This document shows positions 44,457 through 62,223 of a stretch of DNA of 64,000 nucleotides, one piece after another. The notes beneath the pieces are model-generated. The model had not been told where the DNA came from. It ran no database searches and worked only from the letters and a program-made list of their open reading frames with translations. The translations under genes were made by a program, and so were the position numbers. The stretch is from assembly GCA_050173015.1 (NCBI GenBank), contig JBFXLE010000004.1, forward strand, positions 192,001-256,000, written 5' to 3'. Position 1 is the stretch's first letter. Every line of letters begins with the position of its first letter. The stretch comes from Calditrichaceae bacterium. GTDB taxonomy: Bacteria > Calditrichota > Calditrichia > Calditrichales > JBFXGD01.

Positions 44457-45326
44457 TTATGATTCAAAAACATCTTTAAATGTTAATAACCTTTTCGATA
44501 CCGCGGGGTGAGAATAATTTAGACCGTCAAATCCTCTTCCGCCGATAAACAATTTTATGCTGAAACGGTCGCATAAGTCGCAGATGTTATCAAATTCGGC
44601 CTGGGTACGCACGGGATCTTCAAAATAGGTGCTGGAAATGTACATTCGCTCAGGCGCGAAATGTTCAAATATGTGTTCCAAACGCGTCTGTGGCGTTTTT
44701 TGTCCGCTAAAAAGCACTTTGAAACCGCGTAGTTCCAATATATGATCGACCATTTTCAGCGCGATATCATGAAGTTCAAGATCGAAGTTCATGCACATTG
44801 CCATCCCGACCCTTTTTTGTGGCATTCGAATAATTCCCTGCAGACGAATGAGACTATCTTTTATAGTCTGAGACGCGAAATGTTCCTCCGTGATCGAGAT
44901 GATCTCTTTTTCCCACAGGTCACCAATTTGATAGAGAAGTGGGGTGACCAGCCGGTCATAAATTTCATATAACGGATATTGCGCAAGATATAAGCCGTTC
45001 AATACCTGTTGTACACGGCTCCGGTTACAGTTTAACGCCTGCTGTAGTGTGTAGGCAATAAGATAGTCGAAATCATGATGAAAAATATGGTAACTGATCT
45101 GTAAATCTTCTTCTTTTTCAATAGGAATGACCTGAATTTTTGATGAATATTTATTATTCTCGTCAATAAATTTTTTCAAATGTTCAATTAAAAATTTCCG
45201 GTGACCGCCTGCTGTCTTGACACACTCCAGCTTACCTGATTCCGTCCATCGTTTGATGGAGGATACATTTACACCGAGCAGGACTGCTGCCTCCTCCGTA
45301 CTAAAATATTGTATTTTTCCTTTCAT
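44457..45326 (-). CDS. CarH/LitR-like regulator: HTH (MerR/excisionase-like) plus B12-binding domains
   Basis: SSIKRW..G.L..KTAGGHR; W-x9-EH (WEKEIISITEEH); ELHDIA cobalamin motif; GGRG. Confidence 0.85.
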   Translation of the reverse strand: MKGKIQYFSTEEAAVLLGVNVSSIKRWTESGKLECVKTAGGHRKFLIEHLKKFIDENNKYSSKIQVIPIEKEEDLQISYHIFHHDFDYLIAYTLQQALNCNRSRVQQVLNGLYLAQYPLYEIYDRLVTPLLYQIGDLWEKEIISITEEHFASQTIKDSLIRLQGIIRMPQKRVGMAMCMNFDLELHDIALKMVDHILELRGFKVLFSGQKTPQTRLEHIFEHFAPERMYISSTYFEDPVRTQAEFDNICDLCDRFSIKLFIGGRGFDGLNYSHPAVSKRLLTFKDVFES

Positions 45327-45400
45327 CGCTACCTCCCTATGAACAGAGCCGGCTTAAAATACAATCTCCCGGATGATTAAATTAGTTGTACCCAATAAAA

Positions 45401-45596
45401 AACGCTTATTTCGCTCATAAAATGAATTTAAGCTGAAAATATTGAAAGAACAACAGAAAATGAATAAAATCACCATCTCCCGGCTTTAGTATATCTAAAC
45501 GGTTCTCTATAATGAAAAAAATATATTAAAAATTCCGGAATTATTTTTAGATGTATGAAGTTATTTAAAACAAAATGAGCGATATGAGCGAAATAA
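45401..45596. promoter_or_regulatory. Candidate operator repeats in the divergent regulator/crt promoter region
   Basis: tatgagcgaaataa (45583-45596) is the exact reverse complement of 45406-45419; 9-bp-period repeats at both sites. Confidence 0.6.
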
Positions 45597-45716
45597 TTTT
45601 GATTTGGACAAAAAGTATAACTCGAGGCGATAACCTATACAAAGCTGTTCGGATCAGTTAAATGAAAAATCTATGAATAGTTTAAAACAAGGCAGATCAG
45701 GGAGAAATAAATAATA

Positions 45717-46397
45717 GTGATGAAAGCAGAATATCTGATTTTTAATTTACTGATTGTTTCGGGCCCGGTTGTTCTGAGTTTTGACCGCAGAGTAAATTTC
45801 TATGGATTGTGGGCGAAAGCATTGACGGCATCGATAATCACGCTTGTGCCGTTTGTCATATGGGATATACTGGTTGCCGGAAAACACTGGTGGTTTAATG
45901 ATGCCTATATAACGGGAATCAGGATTGCGGGACTACCTGTCGAAGAACTGATGTTTTTTGTGACCGTTCCATTTGCCTGCATTTTCATCTGGGAAGTTCT
46001 CGGCGCGTATGTTTCTGATTACAGAATAGAAAAAGCAGCCCTGTTTAGATTTATCCTGTATTTTTTGTTATTTCCGGCCGCCTTTTATTTGTTGAACGGC
46101 AAAATATACACGGCGCTTGTCCTTACTGCCATCAGTCTGACGGCGTTGCTGGACAGGATTCTCCAAACGGATATTTTTACCAGATCGAGAACATATCTGC
46201 AGTTTATGCTTGTTACATTCTTAATTTTAATATTTAACGGATATCTTACCTCGAGACCAATCGTATTGTATGATCCCGTTTATCAAATCAACTTTAGAAT
46301 TATGACGGTGCCTTTGGAAGATTTCTTTTACGGATATGCTCATGTTTTCTCATCGGTCATAGTTTATTTGAAACTGAAAGGAGATATCCGTGGCTAA
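45717..46397 (+). CDS. crtY: Lycopene cyclase, membrane CrtYcd-type (two-domain)
   Basis: WD..W.FN..GLPVEE.MFF and second repeat NGYLT..VPLEDFFY. Confidence 0.85.
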   Translation: MMKAEYLIFNLLIVSGPVVLSFDRRVNFYGLWAKALTASIITLVPFVIWDILVAGKHWWFNDAYITGIRIAGLPVEELMFFVTVPFACIFIWEVLGAYVSDYRIEKAALFRFILYFLLFPAAFYLLNGKIYTALVLTAISLTALLDRILQTDIFTRSRTYLQFMLVTFLILIFNGYLTSRPIVLYDPVYQINFRIMTVPLEDFFYGYAHVFSSVIVYLKLKGDIRG

Positions 46398-47901
46398 ACG
46401 AGTGACAGTGATAGGAGCCGGCTTGGGAGGCTTATCGGCAGCGATTCGACTTGCAAGCATGGGTTTTAAAGTAACTGTTTTCGAAAAAAACGAGAAACCC
46501 GGCGGCAAGATGAATGAAATAATAAATCATGCATATCGTTTTGACACGGGGCCATCCCTGCTTACCATGCCGTTTGTAATTGATGAGTTGTTTGAATACG
46601 CCGGTTTTAAACGCTTTGATTTTCTTGAATTCAAACCTGTTGATCCGGTGTGCCGCTACTTTTTTAACGATGGCAGTACGTTTGATACCTTTAATAATCC
46701 TGAGGAAATGATCTTTTCTCTCGCGGGCTTCGCGCCGGAGGAAGTTGAAAATTACCAAAAATTCATGGCTTATTCCCGTGATCTTTATGAAAGAGCCGGT
46801 CACCTGTTTTTGACCACACCTATTCATGAGAAAGCTAAAATGTTCAGGCCGGGCATCTTCTCCCTCATCGCGGGGATACATAAAATAGATCCATTCCGCA
46901 CAGTCCACCAGGGAGTATCCGGTTTTTTTAATGACAAGCGTCTCATTCAGTTATTTGACCGTTACGCGACGTACAACGGATCAGATCCCTACAGGGCGCC
47001 GGCTACGCTTAATATGATTCCTTATCTGGAAACTCATCCGGGGGCTTTCTATATAAGCGGAGGGATGTACCGGCTGGTTGACACAATGGTAAAAATCGCG
47101 GAAACACTCCAAATCGATATCCGGACTTCCACAATTGTAGAACAGATTATACATAAGAACAAAAAGGTGGAAGCGGTGAGTATCGACGGGCATGAATTGA
47201 AAACAGATTATGTGGTATGCAACGCCGACGTTGTTTCCGCTTATACCGGATTGATAGACGGTTTGCCCAAAAAAACAAAACGTTACCAGAAACTGGAACC
47301 ATCGCTTTCCGGGATGGTATTCCTGTGGGGAATTAAAGGGACTCATTCAGGGTTAAAACATCATAATATCCTTTTTAGCAAAAACTATAAAAAAGAATTC
47401 GCTCGTATATTTAATGATCTTCAACATCCCGATGACCCCACGGTTTATATTGCCATAACCAGTAAAACAGATCCGGAACACGCCCCGGAAAATGGTGAAA
47501 ACTGGTTTGTACTTGTGAATATGCCTTATCTGGCTGTTCAAAATAAATGGACATCTGACATTGATTCGGTTCGAAAAACTATATTTAGAAAACTTGCTGA
47601 ACACGGGATTGATGTAGCCGGTAAAATCGAAACAGAGAAGGTGCTCACCCCCGAAACTTTTCAAAATTTATATGGCGCGAACCGCGGCAGTATTTACGGG
47701 TTATCTTCAAATAGTCGGTTAAGCGCGTTCTTAAGACCGGCCAACCGAAGCCGTGAAATCGAAGGCCTGTATTTTGTCGGTGGATCCGCGCATCCGGGCG
47801 GCGGAATTCCACTTGTCATTTTATCGGGAAAAATGACAGCTGACCTGATCGGCGAAACGGTTAGCTTCACACAAAAAAACAGATATAAAGTAAAGGCTTA
47901 A
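46390..47901 (+). CDS. crtD: CrtI-family desaturase, most likely 1-hydroxycarotenoid 3,4-desaturase
   Basis: IGAGLGGL, FDTGPSLLTMP, LFDRYATYNGSDPY.APA, GSIYG.SSN, HPGGGIPL. Confidence 0.7.
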   Translation: MAKRVTVIGAGLGGLSAAIRLASMGFKVTVFEKNEKPGGKMNEIINHAYRFDTGPSLLTMPFVIDELFEYAGFKRFDFLEFKPVDPVCRYFFNDGSTFDTFNNPEEMIFSLAGFAPEEVENYQKFMAYSRDLYERAGHLFLTTPIHEKAKMFRPGIFSLIAGIHKIDPFRTVHQGVSGFFNDKRLIQLFDRYATYNGSDPYRAPATLNMIPYLETHPGAFYISGGMYRLVDTMVKIAETLQIDIRTSTIVEQIIHKNKKVEAVSIDGHELKTDYVVCNADVVSAYTGLIDGLPKKTKRYQKLEPSLSGMVFLWGIKGTHSGLKHHNILFSKNYKKEFARIFNDLQHPDDPTVYIAITSKTDPEHAPENGENWFVLVNMPYLAVQNKWTSDIDSVRKTIFRKLAEHGIDVAGKIETEKVLTPETFQNLYGANRGSIYGLSSNSRLSAFLRPANRSREIEGLYFVGGSAHPGGGIPLVILSGKMTADLIGETVSFTQKNRYKVKA

Positions 47902-47903
47902 TA

Positions 47904-49442
47904 ATGTTAAAAATAAAAGAGAGCACTCAATCACATAAACTAAAAGCAGTGGTGATAGGTTCGGGTTTTGGAGGTTTGGCTGAAGCAATTCGCTTGCAGG
48001 CCCGTGGTTTTGAAGTCACCATCATTGAGAAGCAGGATAAGGCAGGCGGCAAAGCTCATCAGATAAAAAAAGACGGGTATGTGTTTGATATGGGACCGTC
48101 ACTCATCACAGCTCCGGATATCATAAAACGGGTTTTTGATGCGGCCGGAAAGCGGATGGAAGATTATATCGATCTGATCCGTCTCGATCCCGGTTACAGG
48201 ATCTATTTTCATGACGGAACACATATTGAGTACACCTCCGATTCACAAAGAATGAAAGAACAAATGCGCGCGTTCCATCCCGGCGACGCGGAAAACTATG
48301 ATGAATTTATGGAACAGACGCGAAAGCTGTATCATGCGGTTATAACCGAAGGTATGGGTTCGACACCTTTTCATGATATAAAAAAGTTGATCCAGTTTTT
48401 ACCGAGAGCCTTGAGATTAAGCGCGCTTACCCCGGCTTATAGCTTTGTGAAACGGTATTTTGATGACCCCAGACACCGGTTTACTTTTTCGTTTCATCCG
48501 CTTTTTATCGGTGGAAGTCCTTTTAAGATCCCTTCTGTCTATCTGATGATCCCCTACCTTGAAAAAACGGGTGGAATCTGGTTTGCCCGCGGAGGCATGT
48601 ATAGTCTGGTAGAAGCCTTTGCCAAAGTATTTGTGGAAATCGGCGGAACGCTTATAACAGGGGTTCCGGTGGAAGAAATCATCACGGAAAACGGCAAGGC
48701 AAGAGGTGTCAGAACTTCGACTTCATTTTATGAAGCGGATGTGGTCATATCCAACGCGGATTTTGCGCATACTTATAAAGATTTAATCAAGTCTGAAGAC
48801 CGTAAGAAATGGACGGATAGAAAAATCGATAGTTTAGATTATTCAATGAGCGCGTTTCTAATATATTTGGGAGTGAAAAAGCAGTATCCCAAATTACTCC
48901 ATCATACACTGATTCTTTCAGAAAGATATAAAAAATTGGTCACTGATATTTTTGATAAAAAAATACTGCCGGATGATTTTTCAATGTACCTGCACGCGCC
49001 TACGCGTACCGATCCGTCAATGGCGCCCGATGGACATGAAAGTCTATATGTGCTCATACCCGTGGCCAATCTGAAGGGTAAGATTGACTGGGAGAGTGAA
49101 AAGAAAAAGTACGCGGATAAAGTCATTGATTTTCTGGAGAAGGATTTTGGGATGATTGATCTCAGGGAAAATATCGAAGTACAGGAGATTTTCACACCGG
49201 TTGATTTCAAAGAAAAACAAAATGCCTATCTCGGCAGCGCCTGGGGAGTGGAACCAAAGTTGATGCAAACCGCTTATTTCAGGCCGCACAACCGGAGCGA
49301 AGATATCAAAAATCTATATTTTGTTGGAGCAAGCACTCATCCGGGAGCGGGAGTTCCCGGCGTGTTGCTTACCGCGGAAACGACAGAAAATGTAATATTG
49401 TCAGATTTTGGATTGCAGCAATTTAATCTAAAGAGCGCCTGA
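47904..49442 (+). CDS. crtI: Phytoene desaturase
   Basis: [50 protein letters not shown]. Confidence 0.9.
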   Translation: MLKIKESTQSHKLKAVVIGSGFGGLAEAIRLQARGFEVTIIEKQDKAGGKAHQIKKDGYVFDMGPSLITAPDIIKRVFDAAGKRMEDYIDLIRLDPGYRIYFHDGTHIEYTSDSQRMKEQMRAFHPGDAENYDEFMEQTRKLYHAVITEGMGSTPFHDIKKLIQFLPRALRLSALTPAYSFVKRYFDDPRHRFTFSFHPLFIGGSPFKIPSVYLMIPYLEKTGGIWFARGGMYSLVEAFAKVFVEIGGTLITGVPVEEIITENGKARGVRTSTSFYEADVVISNADFAHTYKDLIKSEDRKKWTDRKIDSLDYSMSAFLIYLGVKKQYPKLLHHTLILSERYKKLVTDIFDKKILPDDFSMYLHAPTRTDPSMAPDGHESLYVLIPVANLKGKIDWESEKKKYADKVIDFLEKDFGMIDLRENIEVQEIFTPVDFKEKQNAYLGSAWGVEPKLMQTAYFRPHNRSEDIKNLYFVGASTHPGAGVPGVLLTAETTENVILSDFGLQQFNLKSA

Positions 49443-49459
49443 ACAAAAATGGGGGATGT

Positions 49460-50401
49460 ATGGACCTTTTTAATGATAAATCAATGGAAGCCGCGTTTCG
49501 CTATGCCAGGGCGCAAACCGCCCATTATTCAAAAAGTTTTTATCTCTCGTCGGCAATGTTACCTAAGGAAAGGCGCTGGGCAACGTATGCTCTTTACGGT
49601 TTTTGCAGATACGCGGATAATATTATCGATAATCCGAGAAACAGGTCTGCCCAGGAGTTAATTGATGAAATCGATTATATGTCGAATGAGCTTGTCATCG
49701 CTTACCACAGATGGGAATCTGAACATCCGATTTTAAAACCTTTTATCTGGGTTGCTCAAAAACACGGAATACCCATTGAATATCCCCTCGATCTGTTGAA
49801 GGGGGTAAAAATGGATATTCAAAAAAACAGGTATGAAAATTTTGATGAATTGTATCTGTTCTGCTATCGTGTCGCTGGTGTTGTCGGCCTTATGATGACG
49901 CATGTTCTCGGATATAAATCAAAAGACGCTTTCTTCTATGCGGAAAAACTCGGGATAGCCATGCAGCTTACAAATATCCTGAGAGATGTGCAGGAAGACA
50001 AGAATATGAACCGCATTTATCTGCCTATGGATGAATTGGAAGCCCACGGCCTTGTCACGAAGGATGTGATGAATGAACGGATGAACGGTAAAATGAAAAA
50101 ATTTATGCGCTTTCAGATTAAACGCGCGCTTCAGTATTATTCTGAAGCAAATCAGGGTATTCGTCTGCTCAACACAGAGACACAATTCGCGATTTACGCG
50201 GCAAGCAGAATTTATGAAGGCATCTTAAAGAAGATAGAAGCCCGGAATTATGATCCCTTTAAAGGACGGGTTTATGTAAAACAGGGAAAAAAATTCTTGA
50301 TTTTGCTATTCGAAATAATAAAAACAAAAATCAATCAGTTTGGAGAATTAATTTTTCCTTCAGCTTATATGGCGGGAATGGATGATAAGGGCAAAGCATA
50401 G
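49460..50401 (+). CDS. crtB: Phytoene synthase
   Basis: SKSFY, YGFCRYADNIID, CYRVAGVVG, AMQLTNILRDVQED..RIYLP. Confidence 0.95.
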   Translation: MDLFNDKSMEAAFRYARAQTAHYSKSFYLSSAMLPKERRWATYALYGFCRYADNIIDNPRNRSAQELIDEIDYMSNELVIAYHRWESEHPILKPFIWVAQKHGIPIEYPLDLLKGVKMDIQKNRYENFDELYLFCYRVAGVVGLMMTHVLGYKSKDAFFYAEKLGIAMQLTNILRDVQEDKNMNRIYLPMDELEAHGLVTKDVMNERMNGKMKKFMRFQIKRALQYYSEANQGIRLLNTETQFAIYAASRIYEGILKKIEARNYDPFKGRVYVKQGKKFLILLFEIIKTKINQFGELIFPSAYMAGMDDKGKA

Positions 50402-51077
50402 TATCTGGGCAGACAAGCTATTTGAAAAGTATTTGAATCGTCTATTAAAAAATCATTTTTATTCAATCAATGTGTTGTCAGAGTATCCGGTTATAAAAAC
50501 CGATTTACCATTGATTATTATACCGAATCACAGTACCTGGTGGGATGGTTTTCTCATTTATCATTTAAATAAAAGAATTTTTGGCCGCCGGATGTTTGTG
50601 ATGATGGAGGAGAAACAATTAAAAAAATTCCCTTTTTTTTCCAAACTTGGAGCTTTCGGTGTTAACGCGAAAAGTGTAAAAAGCATATTAAAATCCCTTA
50701 AGTACGCAAACAGCATTCTTAAAAACGCCGAAAGTATGCTCTGTGTTTTTCCCCAGGGAGTTCTGGAAAGATGGCACAAAAGACCCGTGAAGTATAAAAG
50801 GGGTATAGAGAAGATTGTTGAAAGCATGGAAGGAGATTCGGTTCTGCTTCCGCTGGGTATTCGCGCGGAATTTACCGGCGAGCAACGGCCTGAAATTTTT
50901 CTGAATTTCGGAAAATCAATGTTGGTGAATAAAACAAATTTTCCCGGTATTCAAGCGTTGGAATCACAACATGAACGGTTGTTGGATCAGCTTGAAAACA
51001 AAGTAAAAAATGGTGATAAAGGGGAAAAAATTTTTACGGGAAAAAAATCTCTGAGTGAAAGCAAATTAAAAAGATGA
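50382..51077 (+). CDS. PlsC-like acyltransferase (CruD-like carotenoid glycoside acyltransferase)
   Basis: PNHSTWWDG, FF.KLGAF, VFPQG, RPE. Confidence 0.8.
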   Translation: MIRAKHSIWADKLFEKYLNRLLKNHFYSINVLSEYPVIKTDLPLIIIPNHSTWWDGFLIYHLNKRIFGRRMFVMMEEKQLKKFPFFSKLGAFGVNAKSVKSILKSLKYANSILKNAESMLCVFPQGVLERWHKRPVKYKRGIEKIVESMEGDSVLLPLGIRAEFTGEQRPEIFLNFGKSMLVNKTNFPGIQALESQHERLLDQLENKVKNGDKGEKIFTGKKSLSESKLKR

Positions 51078-52210
51078 TAGAGATATCCTTAATTCTGTTG
51101 GTATTAATGTTGATCGTTGCTATAGAAAACATAGTGAACGGACCTGATTTGCGAAAAAAGCAGGACGGGAAAGGTTTTCTGAAAGTTTCCATATTGATCC
51201 CGGCGCGTAATGAAGTAGATGTTCTGGAATCATGTCTCGAAAGTCTGGTTAAACAAAAATATGCAGATTTTGAAATTATTGTTTTGAATGATCAATCAAC
51301 TGACAGCACAGGTGATGTGATAAAACAGTATGCCGGAATGTATCATACAGTACGCGGGGTTGAAGGAAGTCCGGTTCCTGACGGATGGATCGGAAAAAAC
51401 TGGGCGTGCTGGCAGCTAAGCCTTGAAGCTTCGGGAGATATTTTATTTTTCACTGACGCGGACACTATTCACAGACCCGATTCCGTTTCTCACGCGGTAA
51501 GCTGGATGCAATCCCGACAGGCTGAGGCTTTTTCAGTTTTTCCCCAACAAATCACAGGGACGACGGCTGAAAAATTATTGGTGCCGTTGATAGATTTTAT
51601 TCTCTATAGTCTTTTACCGCTTCGGCTGATATATAAATCATCTTTTCCTTCGCTGTCCGCCGCAAACGGGCAGCTGCTTGTTTTTACCAGGCGGGCGTAC
51701 AACAGCATAGGAGGACATCAGGCGGTAAAAAATAAAATTGTGGAAGATGTGGAACTGTTCCGAAAGGCAAAATCAATAAAACTAAAAGCTATGACGGTAA
51801 GCGGAACCGGAGTCGTTTTCTGCAGAATGTACAGAGGGCAACGACAGTTAATGAACGGATTGACTAAGATTTTGTTTGGGTTGACAGGAAATAAAATCGT
51901 AGCGCTCCTGATTTTTACCGGGATCATGTTTATGGCAAATCTCTATCCGTTCGTTTACCTGTTTAGCCAGAAATTCACAATCGCCTTATTCATCCCGGCA
52001 GGTATGGTTTTAATAATCAGGCTGGCAGTGGCATTAAGATACCGGCACCCGGCTTTTATTAGTGTTTTTTTGCATCCGCTGGCGGTGACAATCATTATTT
52101 TTATGGCCTTTAATTCATTTTTAAAAACAAAATGGGGTCGTTTCGAGTGGAAGGGTCGCGACATTGTTCTGAAAAAAATTAATCATTATCCGAATCATAT
52201 TATAAAATGA
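51074..52210 (+). CDS. GT2 glycosyltransferase (CruC/CrtQ-like carotenoid glycosyltransferase)
   Basis: IPARNE, DQSTD.T, GWIGKNWAC, FTDAD, ANGQ, VEDV, RMY, WKGR. Confidence 0.85.
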   Translation: MIEISLILLVLMLIVAIENIVNGPDLRKKQDGKGFLKVSILIPARNEVDVLESCLESLVKQKYADFEIIVLNDQSTDSTGDVIKQYAGMYHTVRGVEGSPVPDGWIGKNWACWQLSLEASGDILFFTDADTIHRPDSVSHAVSWMQSRQAEAFSVFPQQITGTTAEKLLVPLIDFILYSLLPLRLIYKSSFPSLSAANGQLLVFTRRAYNSIGGHQAVKNKIVEDVELFRKAKSIKLKAMTVSGTGVVFCRMYRGQRQLMNGLTKILFGLTGNKIVALLIFTGIMFMANLYPFVYLFSQKFTIALFIPAGMVLIIRLAVALRYRHPAFISVFLHPLAVTIIIFMAFNSFLKTKWGRFEWKGRDIVLKKINHYPNHIIK

Positions 52211-54540
52211 AGAACTTAAAATATTTAATACTAATCATCTTTTTAATATCGTCAGCTCTGGCTGATGCTACCGGCCGAATCACCGGAAGGATTATCGATC
52301 GGCAGACCAAAGAACCGCTCGCGGGAGTGAATGTGAGTTTACTCCTGACAAGCCTGGGATCTTCATCCGGGGAGGATGGGCGGTTTTTGATAAGTAATGT
52401 GCCGGAAGGCACACATCGACTTGAGTTTACTTACGCGGGTTACCAAAAACGAGTCGTGTCTGATATTCCTGTTACCTCCGTTAAAGCCGCTATCGTAAAT
52501 ATACAGCTGATTGAGGAGATTTATGAAGGTGAAAAAATTATAGTGACAGCCGGTTATTTTTCGGAAGAAACGCAAGTTCAGCCGGGTGTCTTTTCATTGT
52601 CAAGAGAGGAAATCCGCAGATTTCCGGGGGGATTTGAAGATGTGGTTCGTACTGTTTCCACATTGCCCGGAGTCGCAATAAATGTAACAGGTGGGAGAAA
52701 TGATCTCCTTGTGCGCGGCGGCGGGCCTTCTGAAAATCTGTATGTAATTAACAATATCGAAATACCAAATATAAATCATTTTGGCGGACAGGGAACCGGC
52801 AGCGGTTCTCTGAGCTTTCTAAATCTTGACTTTGTAAATAATGTCAGTTTTTCAACAGGTGGTTTTTCAGTGGACTACGGCGATAAAATGTCGTCTGTAT
52901 TGGAATTGACTATGACTGAAGGGCGTTCAGACAGGATCGGCGGCAAACTTCTGCTATCCGCGACACAATTTGGTTTAAATGGCGAAGGGCCTTTGGGAAA
53001 TAATGGTAATTTTATTGTATCCGCCCGGAAAAGTTACCTGGATCTGATTTTTAAAGCGGCCGGATTACCCTTTATTCCTGTTTATACGGACTATAATGTT
53101 TTGTTAAATTTTCAACCAACTAATCGGGACAGGATTGTGCTTTTGGGATTAGCCGCGGTGGACCGGGTGGAACGGGATCAGAGCTCTCAGGAAAATCGCG
53201 TAACGAACTCCGGCATCCTCGGAAACTCGCAGAATCAGTTTATCGCGGGAATGGATTACAGACACCTTTTGAACAGCGGCTATATAAATCTGACAACAAG
53301 CTGGAATTTGAATCAATTTCGTCTGAATCAGAAGGATGAAAATGAAATTGATTATTTTAACAGCAGGGCAGATGAACAAGAGCTGAATTTAAAGCTACAG
53401 CATTTTACGCTTATGAGTAAAAAACTGGGGATTAAGACCGGATTATCCCAAAAGTTTATTTTCAGTGACAATCAGTCTGTTTTTGCGGACAGCATTTTTG
53501 ACAGAAACGGGAAAAAACTGCCGGTCGAAGCGATCGGTGTCAGTAAAGAAAATTTTCAAAATATCAGTGCATCCAAATCAGCACTGTTTTTTGAAGCGGA
53601 ATGGTTCGCGAATAAAAATGTGACCGTGAAGAGCGGATTTCGCGCGGATTACTTTTCCTTTCTTGAACAGCCCCTCTATATCGCGCCCAGAATGGCTTTG
53701 AAATATCAGATATCGCCCCGGTTTCAATTGAAGACAAGCGGAGGCGTTTACTATCAGTCCCCGTCCTATGTGTGGCTTGTGAATCGGGAGAACAGATACC
53801 TAAAAGCGCTTGAGAATAAAATGATTGTCGCGGGTTTTGATTATCTCCTTCGGGAAGATACCAGGGTGTCACTGGAGACCTATTATAAACGTTACGACAA
53901 TTTGCCCTCAGGGGCTGCTGCCGGTCTGAATGATTACCTGGTAATAACCAACACGGGAACTTCTTACGGAGGGCGTGATGATGATTTCCAGTCCTTCGGT
54001 TATTTTCCTCTTAAATCATCCGGAGATGGTTACGCGTATGGATTCGAATGGCTGGTTCAGAAACGGTTTTCTGATATACCGCTTTATGGACAGATGAGTT
54101 TTTCGTATGCCAGGTCCGGGTATAAGGCAGAAAACGGTAAGATTTATCCCGGTCAGTACGATCAGCGGGTCATCTTCAATATATCAAGCGGTTATATATT
54201 TAATAAAAAGTGGGAGATGAGCGGAAAATTCAGATATTTTACCGGGATTCCCTATACGCCGGTTTACAGACCGTCAGAAAACAATATTCAACCCGGATCC
54301 GTTCAGAATTTACCGGATGAATATCTTTCGGGGAGACTTGCCCCGGCGCATCATCTGGACTTACGGGTTGACCGGTATTTTAACTTTCCCAAATGGATGT
54401 TGATAATATTCGTAGACATCCAAAATATCTATAACTTTAAAATTCCGTCCCCTCCGGAGTATGATTTTTGGGAAGATAAGATTGTCACCGCGTCGAACAT
54501 TGGAATATTACCGTCAATTGGTATCAGCTTTGAGTATTAG
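52207..54540 (+). CDS. TonB-dependent receptor with N-terminal carboxypeptidase-regulatory-like domain
   Basis: Signal peptide; G.I.D..T.EPL.G.NV; plug VRGG.PSENL..IPNINHF; barrel with aromatic C-terminus SFEY. Confidence 0.9.
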   Translation: MKNLKYLILIIFLISSALADATGRITGRIIDRQTKEPLAGVNVSLLLTSLGSSSGEDGRFLISNVPEGTHRLEFTYAGYQKRVVSDIPVTSVKAAIVNIQLIEEIYEGEKIIVTAGYFSEETQVQPGVFSLSREEIRRFPGGFEDVVRTVSTLPGVAINVTGGRNDLLVRGGGPSENLYVINNIEIPNINHFGGQGTGSGSLSFLNLDFVNNVSFSTGGFSVDYGDKMSSVLELTMTEGRSDRIGGKLLLSATQFGLNGEGPLGNNGNFIVSARKSYLDLIFKAAGLPFIPVYTDYNVLLNFQPTNRDRIVLLGLAAVDRVERDQSSQENRVTNSGILGNSQNQFIAGMDYRHLLNSGYINLTTSWNLNQFRLNQKDENEIDYFNSRADEQELNLKLQHFTLMSKKLGIKTGLSQKFIFSDNQSVFADSIFDRNGKKLPVEAIGVSKENFQNISASKSALFFEAEWFANKNVTVKSGFRADYFSFLEQPLYIAPRMALKYQISPRFQLKTSGGVYYQSPSYVWLVNRENRYLKALENKMIVAGFDYLLREDTRVSLETYYKRYDNLPSGAAAGLNDYLVITNTGTSYGGRDDDFQSFGYFPLKSSGDGYAYGFEWLVQKRFSDIPLYGQMSFSYARSGYKAENGKIYPGQYDQRVIFNISSGYIFNKKWEMSGKFRYFTGIPYTPVYRPSENNIQPGSVQNLPDEYLSGRLAPAHHLDLRVDRYFNFPKWMLIIFVDIQNIYNFKIPSPPEYDFWEDKIVTASNIGILPSIGISFEY

Positions 54541-54584
54541 ATGTAGAGTGTTTTGCCATTATGCGAATTGAATAAAGAGTCAGA

Positions 54585-55307
54585 ATGAAAGAAAAATCAA
54601 TTTTATTGTCATTGGTATTTACCCACAAAGATTCCATAAAACTTCTGGTCCTATATGTATTAATGATCGCCGGAGGCATATGGCATCTTTTGGGATGGTT
54701 TCAACCGGTTATGCAAAATTCGGCATCACTGGCCATGGGATTGATCACGCTCTGGATTGTTTATGAATATTACGGGCTATACCAATCCGTGAAAAAGAAT
54801 GACCGGGATAAAAGAAGTGATTTTTTTCGTTTACTTATATGGATCATGTCAGTTTTTATTATTTCTATTGCCATTGAAGAGATTGGCGTATCTACCGGTA
54901 TGATTTTCGGCGAGTATAAATACGGGGAGACGCTCTTTCCGTTTTTTATAAATGTCCCGGTCGCGATCGGATTTTCCTGGATAAATCTTTTGCTCGGATC
55001 CATGGCGGTGGTCAGTGTGATAATTCCCGGATATTCCCGCGCGAATCCTGTTCTGATTTCTATAATGATCGCGGTATTGATGGTCGTGTTCGATTTTCTG
55101 ATGGAGCCCGCGGCCATAAAGCTGGGTTATTGGGAATGGAAAGATAGCATGATTCCGGTCTGGAATTATCTTTCCTGGTTTGTCTTTGGGTTTTTGTTTG
55201 CCTGGTCCGCCTTCGGAACAGGTATATTGAGACGGGGAATTCCCGGCATTACGATGCATGCCTGGTTCGCGCAATTAGCTTATTTTTTTATGGTTACCCT
55301 AAAATAA
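54585..55307 (+). CDS. cruF: Carotenoid 1,2-hydratase CruF-like (DUF422)
   Basis: E.IGV.TG.IFG.Y.YG..L, VP..IG..W, D..MEP.A..LGYW.W, P.WNY..WF. Confidence 0.8.
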   Translation: MKEKSILLSLVFTHKDSIKLLVLYVLMIAGGIWHLLGWFQPVMQNSASLAMGLITLWIVYEYYGLYQSVKKNDRDKRSDFFRLLIWIMSVFIISIAIEEIGVSTGMIFGEYKYGETLFPFFINVPVAIGFSWINLLLGSMAVVSVIIPGYSRANPVLISIMIAVLMVVFDFLMEPAAIKLGYWEWKDSMIPVWNYLSWFVFGFLFAWSAFGTGILRRGIPGITMHAWFAQLAYFFMVTLK

Positions 55308-55317
55308 GGTCTTACGG

Positions 55318-56070
55318 ATGAACACGCTTTCAGAGACATCAAGAAATTCGGGTGGTTTAATGATAGCTTTTGGGATCATTTTTACCTGGGGTATTAGTCT
55401 GATATATTTACTGTCTCTGCATATTAAATGGTCGATGTTTTTCTGGATTCCGCTGGTATTATGGCAGACTTTTTTCTATACCGGTTTGTTTATAACCGCT
55501 CATGACGCGATGCATGGCAGTGTATATCCGCGAAATAGAAAATTAAATGACGCCATAGGCGCCATGGCGGTTATGTTATATGCTTTGTTTTCATACAGGA
55601 AATTAAAGCAGAAGCACTCCGAACATCATCAGTTTCCGGGGACCCGGAAGGACCCTGATTTCCATGACGGGCATAAAAGAGGCATTGTAAGCTGGTATTT
55701 TCATTTTTTAAGAGGCTATATCGGCTGGACACAACTGACCGGAATGGCGGTTATTTTTAATATTCTTGAACATTTGTTCAATGTACCGGTTCTGAATTTG
55801 CTTGTTTTTTGGATTATACCGTCGCTTATGAGCACGGTCCAACTGTTTTATTTCGGCACCTATCTGCCGCACCGTGAAACGGAGATCGCCTTCGCGGACC
55901 GCCACCGGGCGAGAAGTAACGATTATCCGGTATTCTGGTCGTTTCTCACGTGTTATCATTTCGGATATCACTTGGAGCATCATCTTGTTCCGTCGGCTTC
56001 CTGGTGGAGATTGCCGGTGGTGAGGAATAAATTGAAAGATCGTTTATTGATGCAAAATAAGGATGAATAA
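55318..56070 (+). CDS. crtW: Beta-carotene ketolase
   Basis: [19 protein letters not shown]...[26 protein letters not shown]. Confidence 0.9.
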
Positions 56071-57572
56071 TGAAAAAAATTATTGTCATAGGAAGCGGAT
56101 TTGGAGGTTTGGCCGCGGCCAACAGGCTTGCGTCCATGGGACATGAGGTTCATATTTTCGAAAAACGTGACCGTCTGGGCGGAAGGGCGTATCAGTATGA
56201 AATAAACGGTTTTAAGTTCGACGGCGGACCCACGGTGATAACAGCGCCGTATATTTTTGATGAAATTTTTGAAGCCGCCGGGAAAAAGCGTGATGATTAT
56301 TTTAAGCTTGTGCCGCTCGATCCATTCTATCGTCTGTTCAATCACGAAGGACGTTCTTTTGATTATCGTCATCTTTTTGAAGACACGCTAAAGGAGATCG
56401 CCAAATGGAATCCCTCAGATCAGGAAGGATACCGAAAGCTACATAAACATACGCGCTCCATATTTGAATTTTTTCACCCCTATACCGATCAGCCATTCCT
56501 AAAATTGAGCGAGATGCTAAAAATTATGCCTCAGGTGATTCGATTGGAAGGGTACAGGGGCACCTACGGCTATGTCTCCAAATTTATCAAAAATGATTTT
56601 CTCAGAAGAGCGTTTTCATTCCATCCTCTTTTGATCGGCGGTAATCCGTTTGATACGCCGTCGCTATACACGCTCATCCTCCAGTTCGAAAAGGAGTGGG
56701 GCGTCCATTATGCCATTGGCGGAACCGGAGCGATCGTTGATGGGCTTGGCAGATTGTTTGCCGAATCAGGAGGAAAGGTCCGATTAAACACGGAAGTCAG
56801 TAAAATTCTTGTAAAGGGTCACCGTGTGACGGGGGTAAAATTAGCAGACGGGACCACACATGAGGGGGATATCATAGTCAGTAACGGAGATGTCGCGTTT
56901 ACTTACAGAAATCTCATCGAAGAAAAATACCGTCGAAAATATTCCAACAAAAAAATAGAACGCATGGACTACAGCATGTCCCTGTTTGTAATCTATTTCG
57001 GGACGAAGAAAAGATATCTTGATTCCAAACTTCACCACCACAATATCATATTGAATAAAAGGTATAAAGGACTTCTCAAAGAAATTTTTAACGGTCATAA
57101 GATGCCGGAAGACTTTTCTCTCTATCTTCACATGCCGACGCTAACCGATCCGTCTATCGCTCCGGAGGGTTGTGAATCTTTTTATGTCCTTTCTCTGGTG
57201 CCCCACCTTGATTCCGGTGTGGACTGGAAGACGGCAGCCAAACCATATCGTGATAAGATTATGCAATTTCTTGAGGATAATTATTTGCCGGATTTACAAA
57301 ATAATATTATCGCGGAACACTATATCGATCCTTTACATTTTCAGGACACACTCAACAGTTACAAAGGCGCGGCTTTTTCGGTAAAACCAAGTTTAATCCA
57401 GTCCGCGTATTTCAGGCCGCACAACCGGTCTGAAGATTTAGAAAATCTTTATTTCGTCGGCGCCGGCACTCACCCCGGAGCCGGAGTCCCGGCGGTGTTG
57501 TCTTCGGGAAAGATAACGGCAAATTTGATACAATCATCAAACGGGACGGGAAAAAATGACAGAATTCTTTGA
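56070..57572 (+). CDS. crtI: Second phytoene desaturase paralog
   Basis: [48 protein letters not shown]. Confidence 0.9.
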
Positions 57573-58968
57573 GCTTGGATTTTCACAAACAAAAAATGAA
57601 ATTCAACTGGACTCCATCCCGGTTAAAGGTGTGATTCCACCATGGCTGACGGGGACATTGATTCGCAACGGGCCCGGCACTTTTAATGTTGGAAATAGAA
57701 GTTACCGTCATTGGTTTGACGGTCTGGCAATGCTTCACAAATTTTCATTCAAAACCGGTGAAGTGTCCTATTCGAATAAGTTTCTAGAATGTAAGGCATA
57801 TAACGAGGCAATGGAGAAGGGGAAGATATCGTATTCTGAATTTGCCACAGATCCCTGCCGTTCGCTGTTCGGAAAACTAACGGCGGTCTTTAATCAAAAA
57901 ATCACCGACAGCGCCAAGGTCAATGTAGGGCAGATAGGGGAGCAGTTTTTGGCGCTTGGCGAAACTCCGATGCAGATCGAATTTGATCCGATCACCCTGG
58001 AATCGCTGGGTGTGTATAAATATGAAGAGAAATTTAAACAGCATATCACCACAGTTCACCCGCAATTCGATTTTAAAAGCGGTGAAGTGTACAATTTGGT
58101 AACACGATTTAACCGGATCAGCCACTACAGGATTAAACGGGTTTTGGATGGCCGTTCTGAGGTGGCGGCGGAGATACCTGTAAAAGAACCGGCTTATATA
58201 CACAGTTTCGGTATGAGTGAAAAATATCTAATTCTGACCGAGTATCCTCTGGTGGTAAATCCGCTCAAATTATTGTTTCAGATCAAGCCGTTCATCGAGA
58301 ATTTTATCTGGAAGCCCAAAAATGGCGCCCGCTTTCTTATCTTTGAAAAGAAAACAGGCAAATTAGCGGCTGAAGTCAAAACCGATGCCTTTTTCGCTTT
58401 TCATCATATCAACGCGTTCGATGATGGAGAGGATCTTGTCATCGATATTAACGCGTATCCCGATGCTGACATTATTCACGCATTTTATCTAAACAGATTG
58501 AAGGACAAAAAATCCCGTCTGCCATTCGGAGAATTCCGTCGTTATCACCTCAATCCGGCAAACGGAAGCATCCGATATGAAAAGATCTCCGATGAATGCA
58601 TCGAACTGGCGAGGTACGATTATGAACGGCTGAATATGAATAAAGACTATCGGTATGTTTACGCCGTCAGCGTCAATAAAAAGGCGCCGGAGGGATTCTA
58701 TAATCAGTTAGTAAAAATAGACATACACAATAAGAAATCTAAAAATTGGTTTACTGAACATTGCTACCCGGGAGAACCGGTATTTGTCGGCAGGCCCGGA
58801 CGTACAGATGAAGATGAAGGAGTGGTGCTTTCGGTGGTGCTAAATGAAAAAAAGGGAAACTCGTTTTTACTCATTCTTGACGCGGCTACATTCACTGAAA
58901 TTGCCAGAGCAGAAATCCCGCATCCCGTATTGTTCGGTTATCATGGAGAATTTTTTGATCAAATTTAA
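57556..58968 (+). CDS. Carotenoid cleavage oxygenase (RPE65/CCD family)
   Basis: G.IP.WL.G.L.RNGPG, HWFDG.AM; four Fe-ligand His (TVHP, IHSF, FHHIN, GYHG); GEPVFV, EDEG. Confidence 0.9.
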
Positions 58969-61354
58969 TCTGAATTTAAAAGCAACCATAGCGATCTTTA
59001 ATTTGCTTGCCGTGACTATCTTATTCGCCGCGGGAAACAAAGGACATATCGGCGGTATGGTTTCCGATAAACGGACGCTGCAGCCCCTGGCCGGCGCGAA
59101 TATAGTCATTGAAAGTCTCGGCAGCGGGGCGGCAACCGATACTGACGGTCATTTTTCCATTTTAAATCTGGAACCCGGGAGCTACAATATCGACGTGTAC
59201 TATCTCGGATACAAGACGCTTAAAAAGGGGAATGTAATCGTCAATCCAAACCGCACTACGGTTTTGGAACTGGTGATGGACGAAGACCTTCTCGAAAGCG
59301 AAACCATTGACGTAACGGCAAGCTATTTCGACAAACCGAAAAACGCGGTTGTCAGCGCCCGTTCAATGGATTTTGAGGAAATCCGCCGCAGTCCGGGGGA
59401 TGTTCTGGATATACAGAGGGCGGTTCAGGCCCTGCCGGCAGTGGTATCGGGCAGTGATCAGCTTAATGAAATCATTATCCGCGGGGGGTATCCGGGTGAA
59501 AATCTGTTCATAATGGATAATATCGAAATTCCCAATCCGAATCATTTTGCGATCCAGGGAGCCGGGGGCGGGCCGATTAACATGCTCAACAGCTATATGG
59601 TTCGTAATGTGGATTTCTACGCGGGAGCGTTTTCCGCGAAATATGGGGATAAGGCCTCATCTGTCATGGATATATCCCTTCGAAACGGATCCACCGAGCG
59701 GTTTCGGGCTGAAGGCAGTCTGGGAATGGCCGGTGTAGGCGGTCTTATCGAAGGACCGGTCTCGGACGTGGGCAGTTACATTTTTTCAGCCAGAAAAAGT
59801 TATCTTGATCTAATCATTTCTTCAACCGGTCTGACTGCGGTTCCTCATTACTACAATCTACAGGGGAAAATGACACTGAATCTGAATCCAAAGAACACTT
59901 TATTTTTTAATGCTGTATACGGACGTGACAGGATAAATATTGAAGATGAGGAAGAAGCCGGTTATGGGCGCGGCGCGGAAAATGTAAATACACATAACAG
60001 CCAGACCATTGCCGGTCTGACTCTCCGAACTTTCTGGGCGAAAAAACTTTATTCCTTCACTACTTTATCGGCGGTTCAAAATGACTATGATGTGGATGTG
60101 TATGAGTTCAGGCCGGAAAGACACACGTTTTTCACCAATCGTTCAAAGGAAACAGAATACACATTCAAGTCAGATTTTGTATATCAGTTGAGTAAACATA
60201 TTGAGTTTGATTTCGGCGCCTCGGTTAAGCAGCTTAATTTTGATTATGATGTCTGGTCGGAAGCGGATACTCTGTTTCTTTATGATCCGGGAACATCAAA
60301 TTCTGATTCAGCAATCGGTATTTTCCGGGCCTATCCGGAATATTTAATTGATCAAAATGAGAAAACGTATAAAAGCGCGGGATACTTACAGGCATCCGTG
60401 GATTTAATAAAAAAATTCCGCTTAACCGGCGGCCTGCGTTATGATTATTTTGATTATAATAATTTTAGCTCAGTCAGTCCGCGTACAGGTCTGTCTTATT
60501 TTTTTAGTCCTAAAACCACATTCAATCTGGCTTACGGCAAACATTTTCAGTCACCCGCCTATGTTGAACTTGCCGCGAACATTAATAATAACAAATTAAA
60601 AAGCAAATACACCGATCAGTATGTGGTTGGCATTGAACATCTTTTCCGGGATGATATGAAACTTGTGGTCGAGGCTTATTATAAAACTTACAAAGATCTG
60701 GCAGTAAAGAAGACTTTGACGACGCCCGATCCATATGATTATGATGACGGGACCTATCTCAATGCCGGCAAAGGCGATTCAAAAGGAATTGAATTTTTTT
60801 TCCAGAAAAAACTGACCCGCAGTTTCTCAACCATTATTAGTTATTCCCACTCCATTTCACAGGCGGAAGATCCAAGGTACGGTACAAAATTTGACTGGGA
60901 TTATGATTACAGAAATGTATTCACGTTTATTACCGGGTACAAATTCCGGTGGATGAATGATAAATGGTACCGCGATTTAAAAAATAAATGGTGGTTCCAC
61001 GGTTTTTCATGGCTGCCTATCGCTCCGGCTGATGAATTGGAAATCAGTATGAAATTCAGATATCTGGGCGGCCGTCCTTATACACCGCCTGTCTATCATC
61101 CGGAACTGCAGGAATGGGTGGTGGAAGAACAGCAGATTCTCAATCCGGAGCGGTATCCTGAATATCATCGTCTGGATTTGCGAATCGACCGCCGGTTTAT
61201 TTTCAATTCCTGGAATCTGGTTGTATTTTTTGATATCATGAATATTTACGGACGGGATAATATCTGGAGTTATCAGTATAATGACGACGGCACCAGAGAA
61301 CGGGTGCTTCAGTACGAAACCTTACCGATCGGCGGTGTTTCCATCGAATTTTAA
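58943..61354 (+). CDS. Second TonB-dependent receptor, paralogous to 52207-54540
   Basis: Likely start ATG 58943 or TTG 58955; plug IRGG.PGENL..IPNPNHF; ARKSYLDLI; RLDLRIDR; ends SIEF. Confidence 0.9.
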   Translation: MENFLIKFNLNLKATIAIFNLLAVTILFAAGNKGHIGGMVSDKRTLQPLAGANIVIESLGSGAATDTDGHFSILNLEPGSYNIDVYYLGYKTLKKGNVIVNPNRTTVLELVMDEDLLESETIDVTASYFDKPKNAVVSARSMDFEEIRRSPGDVLDIQRAVQALPAVVSGSDQLNEIIIRGGYPGENLFIMDNIEIPNPNHFAIQGAGGGPINMLNSYMVRNVDFYAGAFSAKYGDKASSVMDISLRNGSTERFRAEGSLGMAGVGGLIEGPVSDVGSYIFSARKSYLDLIISSTGLTAVPHYYNLQGKMTLNLNPKNTLFFNAVYGRDRINIEDEEEAGYGRGAENVNTHNSQTIAGLTLRTFWAKKLYSFTTLSAVQNDYDVDVYEFRPERHTFFTNRSKETEYTFKSDFVYQLSKHIEFDFGASVKQLNFDYDVWSEADTLFLYDPGTSNSDSAIGIFRAYPEYLIDQNEKTYKSAGYLQASVDLIKKFRLTGGLRYDYFDYNNFSSVSPRTGLSYFFSPKTTFNLAYGKHFQSPAYVELAANINNNKLKSKYTDQYVVGIEHLFRDDMKLVVEAYYKTYKDLAVKKTLTTPDPYDYDDGTYLNAGKGDSKGIEFFFQKKLTRSFSTIISYSHSISQAEDPRYGTKFDWDYDYRNVFTFITGYKFRWMNDKWYRDLKNKWWFHGFSWLPIAPADELEISMKFRYLGGRPYTPPVYHPELQEWVVEEQQILNPERYPEYHRLDLRIDRRFIFNSWNLVVFFDIMNIYGRDNIWSYQYNDDGTRERVLQYETLPIGGVSIEF

Positions 61355-61470
61355 TTTCGAATTGATACGCGTCATGAGTCCGATGTTGCAATGTCCTCCG
61401 GAACTTTTATAGGTTTTATTCGTGTTGTAGTTTTTAAATATCTTGTCAAATTCGGAAACGGGATAATAAA

Positions 61471-62223
61471 ATGGCTTCATCAGAAAACGGTATCTGGAAT
61501 GAATCCTTCAAAGTTAGGGCTTATGAAGTGGACCCGACCGGCAGAGCGACGATTCAATCCATCTGCAATTATTTTCAGGAAACAGCCGGAAATCACGCGT
61601 CGGACCTGGGTGTGTCGGTCGATACGCTGATCAAAAAAGGTTTGACCTGGGTGTTGTCAAGGCTGCATGTACAAGTCACCAAATATCCTTTCTGGCGGCA
61701 GGATGTACGTCTGGAAACCTGGCCTTCGGGTTTGGACCATTTGTATGCCACACGCGATTTTAAATTATTCAACGAAGCCGGTCAGCTGATCAGTATAGGG
61801 ACCAGTTCGTGGATGTTGCTTGATATCGCCGCGCGAAAACCGATCCGGATGCCTGATTTTATGAAGGAGATCAGAAAAAACACCGGCGGAAGGGCTTTGC
61901 CTGACGACTTTGACAAATTACCGCAAATGGAACGGACGGATCATGAAACCCTGTTTAATGTCAGGTTGAGTGATTTGGATATGAATCAGCATGTCAACAA
62001 TGTAAATTATATTGAGTGGGGACTTGAATCGGTTCCCACAGAGTTCCGGGACACGCGTCATCTTGCCGGCATGGAAGTGAGCTTTCGCGCTGAAAGCGTT
62101 TATGGTGACCGGGTGATTTCCAGAAGTGAAATACGTGATGAGAACACTCTGATTCACCGGCTGATTCGGGAAGGGGATGAAAGGGAACTGGCACAGATGC
62201 GTACCAAATGGATCAAAAAATAG
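61471..62223 (+). CDS. Acyl-ACP thioesterase
   Basis: VRAYEVD, FQE.A..H, WVLSR, ETW, DLDMNQHVNN..Y. Confidence 0.9.
   Translation: MASSENGIWNESFKVRAYEVDPTGRATIQSICNYFQETAGNHASDLGVSVDTLIKKGLTWVLSRLHVQVTKYPFWRQDVRLETWPSGLDHLYATRDFKLFNEAGQLISIGTSSWMLLDIAARKPIRMPDFMKEIRKNTGGRALPDDFDKLPQMERTDHETLFNVRLSDLDMNQHVNNVNYIEWGLESVPTEFRDTRHLAGMEVSFRAESVYGDRVISRSEIRDENTLIHRLIREGDERELAQMRTKWIKK

Follow-up and report, generated by a model that had tools for sequence, protein, structure and literature searches.

Light regulons based on B12 are known to induce genes that act within the cell, for carotenoids and DNA repair. In the CarH/LitR regulons of Myxococcus, Thermus and Bacillus, the gene for a B12-binding repressor adjoins the carotenoid genes under its control, and the known CarH operators are tandem direct 11-bp repeats (nnnnTnnACAn) in the promoter region (PMC9304148, accessible part). 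CtMerR binds adenosylcobalamin (AdoCbl) and passes from tetramer to monomer in the light; the accessible part of the report (PMC11796333) describes neither the DNA site nor the target genes of this protein. Here, we describe a carotenoid (crt) operon that diverges from a CtMerR-type regulator gene and contains two genes for TonB-dependent transporters, TBDR1 and TBDR2. The operon lies in a 64,000-nucleotide stretch (the window; contig JBFXLE010000004.1, positions 192,001 to 256,000) of a Calditrichota metagenome-assembled genome (MAG) designated G000 (97% complete, 4.34 Mb, 54 contigs). TBDR1-clade genes recur in a set of genes marked by one sequence box and the B12 regulator, other members being carotenoid, photolyase and oxidative-stress genes. 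TBDR1 and TBDR2 are probably ordinary TonB-dependent importers that have joined the light regulon of a CarH/CtMerR-type AdoCbl photoreceptor, and the pattern is better explained by shared control than by participation in any one carotenoid step.

Our literature search returned no paper linking a TonB-dependent receptor to crt operons or to CarH/LitR control, and the accessible parts of PMC9304148 and PMC11796333 make no mention of TonB, BtuB or the outer membrane. New here is an outer-membrane, energy-coupled transporter as a recurrent member of B12 light regulons in at least four phyla of the FCB group, as is the predicted operator design, a tandem 9-bp CGCTCA repeat. If the assignment is true, the light response would also alter uptake at the cell surface, or what is placed there. 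It yields a predicted operator for CtMerR-type regulators and a defined transporter clade with a clear inducing signal, and it leaves a simple choice between a corrinoid feedback loop, pigment handling and another light-linked nutrient.

A CtMerR-type regulator beside an operon with two transporter genes

An earlier note on this DNA had described twelve tightly packed genes on the plus strand (45717–61354) as a carotenoid operon with two embedded TonB-dependent receptors, and a B12-dependent regulator diverging from it. Open reading frames (ORFs), Pfam and NCBIfam matches agree with that account, including the regulator at 44457–45326 on the minus strand. The features on which the argument turns are listed below with their positions in the window.

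44457..45326, minus strand: CarH-like, CtMerR-type AdoCbl-binding regulator (PF02607, PF12728, PF13411)
45403..45417, plus strand: predicted operator box on the regulator side, CGCTTATTTCGCTCA (tandem 9-bp repeat, 1 mismatch)
45576..45590, minus strand: predicted operator box on the crt-operon side, CGCTCATATCGCTCA (exact match)
52207..54540, plus strand: TBDR1, TonB-dependent transporter of the light-regulon-linked clade (CarboxypepD_reg and Plug)
58844..61354, plus strand: TBDR2, paralog of TBDR1, with a likelier start at ATG 58943 (CarboxypepD_reg, Plug and PF00593)

The regulator has an HTH_17/MerR N-terminus followed by a B12-binding domain, and matches the NCBIfam CarH model below cut-off (E 2.9e-10). 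Like the CarH/LitR repressor genes, its gene adjoins carotenoid genes. Unlike those repressors, it has an HTH_17/BldC-like DNA-binding domain and finds its full-length match, and best solved relative, in CtMerR (PDB 8JBS/8JBT; 8jbs, residues 6–266, E 4.5e-28) and not in TtCarH (5c8d), which matches the B12 domain alone (E 6.6e-7). The light-responsive signature of such proteins comprises the motifs GxxW, EH, GxxH and GxxxP (PMC11796333, accessible part). GDLW, EEH and GQKTP are present in the translation, and the histidine stands within LELH; the Leu that replaces the Gly of GxxH distinguishes the G000 regulator from CtMerR.

TBDR1 recurs with the regulator across genomes

We compared the locus with 40 relatives of G000 (compared genomes are labeled G###, genomic loci L### and the contigs of G000 C#). 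TBDR1 has orthologs in 12 of them (54–88% identity), and crt genes or the regulator lie beside nine of these. The order acyltransferase-GT2-TBDR1-cruF-crtW, where GT2 is a glycosyltransferase, recurs in three families. TBDR1 sits between GT2 and cruF in G000, G001, G024 and G002, after crtB in G018, G010 and G008, and after crtYcd in G015; elsewhere, the regulator alone adjoins it. Of the remaining three orthologs, that of G007 closes the series DUF2867-SRPBCC-photolyase-TBDR1 on one strand, that of G004 adjoins a fatty-acid desaturase gene, and that of G028 has the box described below. Orthologs of TBDR2 occur in 17 of the 40 relatives (53–94% identity), seven of which have it beside crt genes, namely the second crtI-family gene (crtI_B) and the carotenoid cleavage oxygenase (CCO) gene, or beside the regulator. 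The placement of these transporters in the crt operon is more than chance, because it recurs in other genomes and because G000 holds merely five matches to TBDR1 at E<=1e-20, two of them inside the crt operon.

An alignment of the 12 TBDR1 orthologs retrieved 569 relatives, and the best 80 (41–88% identity) gave a wider set of loci from Calditrichota, KSB1/Zhuqueibacterota, Neomarinimicrobiota, Ignavibacteriota and a few other groups. ORFs were called and clustered in these neighborhoods, and the top clusters were named via Pfam. The B12 regulator is the most frequent neighbor family (two clusters, of 16 and 7 loci). Next comes a PAS histidine kinase, at 14 loci that all fall in one Ignavibacteriota subclade. 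Other recurring neighbors are DUF2867-SDR proteins (10 loci), DUF1722/YbgA-like proteins (9), crtI/D (9) and crtB (8), with smaller clusters of DUF1731 proteins, an SRPBCC protein, AhpC, an ECF sigma factor and SDRs. In a FastTree phylogeny of 76 rows (local support only), the rows fall into a TBDR2 clade (13), a TBDR1 clade A (35; mostly Calditrichota and KSB1) and a clade B (27; mostly Ignavibacteriota). Crt, regulator or photolyase-type genes, or the box, are found at 27 of the 43 clade-A loci and at 9 of the 37 clade-B loci.

The same association is seen in a phyletic survey of 71 Calditrichota genomes, each at least 85% complete. TBDR1 is present in 27 of these genomes (three of the orthologs being partial matches), and 26 of the 27 have the regulator. 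Twenty-four have a crtB ortholog and two more (G028 and G072) have a crtI ortholog beside the regulator, which brings crt genes to 26 of 27; the last, G043, has just a 36% crtI-like match. Among the 44 genomes lacking TBDR1, nine have the regulator and seven have crtB. The link between this transporter subfamily and crt loci that the earlier note had posited is real and conserved, with TBDR1 homologs adjoining crt genes or the regulator in other genomes. What TBDR1 tracks, however, is the regulator and the operator and not any carotenoid enzyme.

A candidate operator box upstream of the regulator, the crt operon and TBDR1 homologs

The regions upstream of regulator genes at other loci have in common a direct repeat, CGCTCA-WWW-CGCTCA, which is arranged in tandem with a period of 9 bp and often occurs once per side of the carH divergent region. 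We regard this repeat as a candidate operator of CtMerR-type B12 photoreceptor regulators. The window has two matches at up to one mismatch (0.12 expected), and the whole of G000 has only two exact copies, one on the crt side and one at C4:166813. The latter lies just upstream of an operon (C4:166875–169760, about 25 kb upstream of the window start) that encodes a YbgA-like (DUF523/DUF1722) protein, an SRPBCC protein and a photolyase. Here, photolyase-type genes would belong to the same response. Unlike those regulons, the predicted G000 regulon includes a TonB-dependent transporter.

Boxes also mark the transporter genes of other genomes. A scan of the 80 loci (1.26 Mb) allowing one mismatch gave 31 matches, 11 of which, at 10 loci, lie 20–200 bp upstream of the start of a TBDR1-family gene (~0.4 expected). 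These box-upstream loci come from Calditrichota, KSB1, one Neomarinimicrobiota single-cell genome and three Ignavibacteriales MAGs. At L031, L041, L074, L075 and L087, a box precedes the TBDR1 homolog where no regulator gene is nearby. G028 and G040 also have a box upstream of TBDR1, and in G074 it lies ~107 bp before a stand-alone copy. At later loci, which were outside the training of the position weight matrix (PWM) discussed below, boxes are found in the carH-crt intergenic region, and five further genomes hold 36 exact boxes against 1 match for a reversed control pattern. G010 and G008 have boxes between TBDR2 and a DUF2141-crtI_B-CCO unit.

In two genomes without a TBDR1 ortholog, another transporter stands behind a box. 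Two boxes in G063 are followed by the gene for a 795-aa paralog of the same family (L141 4008–6392; 29% identical to TBDR1, E 9e-99) and then by DUF2867. The order in G058 is DUF2867, box, amine oxidase and a 944-aa TonB-dependent transporter (L139 7090–9921). Separately, the count of exact boxes is 12 in G058 and 16 in G063, which suggests much larger box regulons in these genomes.

These data bear on whether the transporters have any functional tie to the locus. Rearrangement could have put TBDR genes into or next to crt operons, where they would be carried along under incidental light control. The position of TBDR1 within crt loci indeed varies among genomes, the crt operon exists without it, and TBDR paralogs are numerous in these genomes. 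However, in Calditrichota, KSB1/Zhuqueibacterota, Neomarinimicrobiota and Ignavibacteriales alike, members of one orthologous clade remain linked to the regulator or the box. Stand-alone TBDR1 copies have a box of their own, and other transporters were recruited where the ortholog is missing (G063 and G058). We therefore consider the absence of a functional tie very unlikely.

The transporters do not track a carotenoid-modifying step

The earlier note had proposed that one transporter serves the glycosyl- and acyltransferases and the other the cleavage enzyme, as parts of a system for trafficking carotenoids or apocarotenoids. At the outer membrane, the two proteins of such a system would transport, import or retain carotenoid glycoside esters or the products of cleavage, a role that we find improbable. 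TBDR1 is translationally coupled inside the crt operon, in the GT2-cruF interval, after crtB or after crtYcd depending on the genome, and crt genes are present in all TBDR1 genomes of the survey but G043. Yet seven nearly complete genomes keep the boxed operon, with carH diverging from crtYcd-crtD-crtI-crtB-acyltransferase-GT2-cruF-crtW, and lack a TBDR1 ortholog. Furthermore, of the 27 genomes with TBDR1, 19 have the GT2 ortholog and 8 lack it. A tie of TBDR1 to the glycoside branch was rejected on these two counts, seven genomes having GT2 without TBDR1. One of the TBDR1 genomes without GT2 has a short crtI-crtB-crtYcd-TBDR1 cluster.

Genomes outside the phylum also depart from what carotenoid trafficking would predict. 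The homologs at L092, L080 and L087 are linked to the regulator or the box; their genomes, of unknown completeness, have no crtI-like gene at E<=1e-10 and, in place of crtB, an HpnC/D-like tandem pair or nothing. At the Neomarinimicrobiota loci L059 and L092, the regulator and box adjoin the transporter gene, and the retrieved flanks contain no crt gene. Service to the glycosyl- and acyltransferases is hard to reconcile with these distributions, with the regulator as the commonest neighbor of TBDR1 homologs and with the box that stand-alone copies have for themselves. For TBDR2, the fact that 7 of 17 relatives have it next to crtI_B-CCO or the regulator speaks for carotenoid handling, whereas six genomes with an ortholog lack both crtB and the regulator and have it beside LytTR two-component genes, among others. 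This pattern contradicts a dedicated service to the cleavage enzyme. That enzyme is itself cytoplasmic, no signal peptide being seen in CCO. A match to rhodopsin (PF01036) is likewise missing from G000, a result that says little since the control genomes were silent too.

A precedent for outward transport that needs such a protein is Oar, a TonB-dependent transporter of Myxococcus that is required for secretion of PopC (PMC6434023, accessible part). Oar differs in that its cargo is a protein. A bolder version makes the TBDR1 clade the first outer-membrane transporter dedicated to carotenoids, with light-switched uptake or insertion of carotenoids or apocarotenoids at the surface and scavenging from the environment by relatives that have the light switch and the transporter but lack the pathway. 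We judge this version doubtful as well. Overall, a carotenoid cargo is not supported. As a separate candidate, the SRPBCC protein (p156) was considered as a periplasmic pigment carrier and rejected, as it has no signal peptide.

Structure and family placement of TBDR1 and TBDR2

TBDR1 and TBDR2 align over their full length as paralogs (31% identity, E 6e-97). The motifs from which the earlier note had deduced their kinship (RGG.P.ENL, NIEIPN.NHF, ARKSYLDLI and LDLR.DR) all appear in the alignment of the two. Each carries a signal peptide and includes a CarboxypepD_reg-like domain and a Plug domain (PF07715; E 1.9e-8 in TBDR1 and 5.1e-8 in TBDR2). The barrel family PF00593 matches TBDR2 (E 1.9e-27), and the barrel of TBDR1 is visible in an AlphaFold2 (AF2) model built from a 76-row alignment (pLDDT 87.3, pTM 0.86). 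The model has an N-terminal beta-sandwich, a plug and a 22-strand barrel. Its sole disordered stretch, ahead of the plug, is the segment EKIIVTA (residues 109–115), which is conserved in the 12 TBDR1 orthologs with I111 and V113 invariant. The counterpart in TBDR2 is ETIDVTA. The TonB box has the consensus xTxVVTA, and both segments look like TonB boxes. The TonB partner is encoded in G000, with five matches to TonB_C (PF03544) above cut-off.

Comparison with proteins of known structure or function left the transporters without a close relative. A Foldseek search of the PDB with the TBDR1 model returned generic TonB-dependent transporters with TM scores of 0.57–0.63 and 11–14% identity, none of which stands out. 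They include PqqU, PirA, Cir, PfeA, FpvA and BtuB (E 1e-28 to 1e-33). A profile search of PDB sequences found nothing close, and the matches from both searches are too generic to infer the cargo of TBDR1. The ESM Atlas gave only generic 'TonB-dependent receptor' clusters.

Identity with BtuB was rejected, as neither protein matches TIGR01779 or NF007926 at E<=1e-5. SusC/RagA identity was rejected too: TIGR04056 scores 71.1 bits for TBDR2, and only at the N-terminus, against a cut-off of 368.25, and does not match TBDR1. The transporters resemble the SusC/RagA proteins of Bacteroidota in the N-terminal CarboxypepD_reg-like domain and plug. They differ in length (~780–800 aa versus a model of 981 positions) and in their neighbors; there is no SusD-like gene adjoining TBDR1 or TBDR2, the genes downstream being cruF and that for an acyl-ACP thioesterase, respectively. 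Oar, too, has an N-terminal carboxypeptidase-regulatory-like domain. With the family models, the PDB profile and fold searches and the comparison with a riboswitch-linked transporter of G000 described below, the TBDR1 subfamily groups with neither BtuB nor SusC.

Proposed regulation of the transporters and points against it

Recruitment into the light regulon would work as follows. In the dark, the regulator would occupy the CGCTCA repeats of the 390-bp divergent region and silence its own gene as well as the crt operon. Light or a lack of AdoCbl would release it from the box. The overlapping gene string would then yield TBDR1 and TBDR2 alongside the carotenoid enzymes, while the box-bearing photolyase operon would come on in parallel. 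The transporters would thus sit in the crt operon through shared control and not through service to a given carotenoid-modifying step, and they would carry out the energized import of some small molecule that the cell wants under illumination. We infer energized import from the features that both proteins retain, namely a TonB-box-like segment, the plug and the 22-strand barrel.

Several points weigh against this explanation or limit its support. The PWM supports it in that, at scores of at least 16, it marks the upstream regions of 11 of 78 TBDR1-family genes versus 22 of 859 other genes, but this contrast is partly circular, as the matrix was trained on the loci scored; the scan at up to one mismatch and the later loci L122–L131 are free of this circularity. 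The 22 other genes are carH, crt, DUF2867, DUF1722 or ECF sigma factor genes or the divergent partners of these. The TBDR1 loci of G007 and G004 have no box, and the complete genome G060 has four exact boxes with no TonB-dependent transporter within ~6 kb. The 9-bp period of the box also differs from the 11-bp repeats of the described CarH operators (PMC9304148, accessible part). Sixteen of the 43 clade-A loci have neither a light-regulon neighbor nor a box, although 5 of the 16 are short or at contig edges, and one Ignavibacteriota subclade of homologs (11 rows) mostly adjoins the PAS histidine kinase. The compared genomes are related and are, hence, not independent samples. Finally, the functional core of the explanation, the cargo, is a guess.

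Corrinoids as a candidate cargo

Among named cargoes for the two transporters, a corrinoid, which would recharge the photoreceptor, is the leading candidate, though a tentative one. A carotenoid or apocarotenoid is quite unlikely, and the remaining odds go to something else. In the corrinoid scheme, of which the earlier note had offered the cobalamin form as its alternative, TBDR1 would take up cobalamin or another corrinoid and close a feedback loop with the AdoCbl-dependent repressor, so that low AdoCbl or light would lift repression and yield more regulator and more importer. We rate such a loop as possible but unlikely.

The phylum as sampled looks auxotrophic for B12. CbiC was found in 0 of the 71 Calditrichota genomes of the survey, while the control was positive in 6 of 14 known genomes; therefore, the phylum as sampled must import corrinoids. 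The same uniformity removed B12 production versus auxotrophy as a discriminator, as there is no variation to exploit. The regulator is itself the commonest neighbor of TBDR1 homologs (16 + 7 of 80 loci), often directly upstream on the same strand or divergent, and it accompanies TBDR1 in all but one of the 27 survey genomes. It also forms two-gene units with TBDR1 in genomes without detectable crt genes (e.g., L092, on a 135-kb contig). Nine regulator-bearing genomes, in contrast, have no TBDR1.

G000 has a conventional candidate for corrinoid uptake elsewhere. Its single match to the cobalamin riboswitch (RF00174), on contig C6, heads a locus (C6:65571–73017; L105) with genes for a BtuB-like transporter, a beta-propeller protein that is possibly BtuG-like, BtuF and NrdJ, a B12-dependent ribonucleotide reductase. 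The best family match of this riboswitch-linked transporter is TIGR01779 (TonB-B12; E 2.9e-44), and TBDR1 shows no similarity to it (E 4.4). Like BtuB and the BtuB-BtuG systems, TBDR1 belongs to the TonB-dependent transporters. BtuB and Bacteroides BtuB-lipoprotein complexes are among the many equally good Foldseek matches, and B12 is the ligand of the G000 regulator. However, TBDR1 lacks an NCBIfam BtuB match at E<=1e-5, a riboswitch, and BtuF or BtuG neighbors, having GT2 and cruF in their place. BtuF, BtuCD and BtuG-like proteins are likewise absent among the conserved neighbor clusters of its homologs. Rfam scans of 37 of the 80 loci (566,525 bases), those without a regulator link, found no cobalamin riboswitch; L091, L094, L096–L099, L101, L102 and all regulator-linked loci were left out. 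An nhmmer search of all loci with the cobalamin riboswitch of G000 itself gave self matches only.

Gene content of the carotenoid operon

The gene order of the operon is crtYcd, crtD, crtI, crtB, acyltransferase, GT2, TBDR1, cruF, crtW, crtI_B, CCO and TBDR2. The genes other than those for the transporters, and one downstream gene, are as follows.

45717..46397, plus strand: lycopene cyclase, CrtYcd type (PF18916, E 5.7e-28)
46390..47901, plus strand: CrtD-like 1-hydroxycarotenoid 3,4-desaturase (NF042421 E 6e-128, below cut-off; TIGR02734 above cut-off)
47904..49442, plus strand: crtI, phytoene desaturase family (PF01593, E 1.3e-40; crt-locus orthologs 63–68% identical)
49460..50401, plus strand: CrtB phytoene synthase (PF00494, E 8e-75)
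50382..51077, plus strand: acyltransferase, presumed from context to act on carotenoid glycosides (PF01553, E 4.7e-11)
51074..52210, plus strand: GT2 glycosyltransferase, CruG/HpnB-like (PF00535; NF045692 CruG E 1.9e-29, below cut-off)
54585..55307, plus strand: CruF-like carotenoid 1,2-hydratase (PF04240, E 2e-24; CruF models below cut-off)
55318..56070, plus strand: CrtW beta-carotene ketolase (NF045690 E 5.6e-99, 330.6 bits versus a cut-off of 350)
56070..57572, plus strand: crtI_B, second crtI-family desaturase (TIGR02734, E 7.9e-173; paired with CCO in other genomes)
57556..58968, plus strand: CCO, RPE65-type carotenoid cleavage oxygenase (PF03055, E 2.7e-121)
61471..62223, plus strand: acyl-ACP thioesterase, whose gene may end the unit (PF01643, PF20791)

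The joint presence of crtB, crtI, a cyclase, CrtD, CruF, CrtW, a glycosyltransferase and an acyltransferase is the gene set for keto-, hydroxy- and glycoside-ester-type carotenoids. The exact products are assigned provisionally because several equivalog models score below cut-off. The junctions named in the earlier note can be read directly from the DNA. GT2 and TBDR1 have ATGA in common (52207–52210), crtW and crtI_B have TAATG in common, crtI_B and CCO overlap by 17 nt, and CCO (end 58968) overlaps TBDR2 from either of its possible starts, 58844 or 58943. Of these two, ATG 58943 is the likelier because a signal-peptide-like stretch comes after it. The overlapping genes are predicted to form one transcript. 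A scan of the region for sigma-70 promoters and terminators was uninformative (48 promoter-like sites versus 42.5 expected). The acyl-ACP thioesterase gene adjoins the operon in G000 and, beyond it, in a same-genus genome only.

The crtI_B and CCO genes (56070–58968; also L109, L111 and L112) form a conserved pair, which is preceded by a gene for a secreted DUF2141 protein in G010, G008 and G037. On the other side of the regulator, an ORF on the minus strand (42948–43343) encodes a 131-aa AhpC/TSA-like protein with a match limited to the C-terminal portion of the Pfam model; a truncation or a different start is possible. AhpC genes belong to the box-marked gene set at other loci.

Control of the transporter family may differ in the kinase-linked Ignavibacteriota subclade. 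At L073, L079, L081, L088, L090, L093, L095, L096, L098, L099 and L103, the TBDR1-like gene is always divergent from the gene for a PAS-HisKA-HATPase-REC hybrid kinase, and a conserved block of Sir2, TPR and HD-OB genes surrounds it. Another Ignavibacteriota locus, L089, has a match to a group I intron (RF00028; 21380–21657, 99.7 bits) ~9 kb from the transporter gene.

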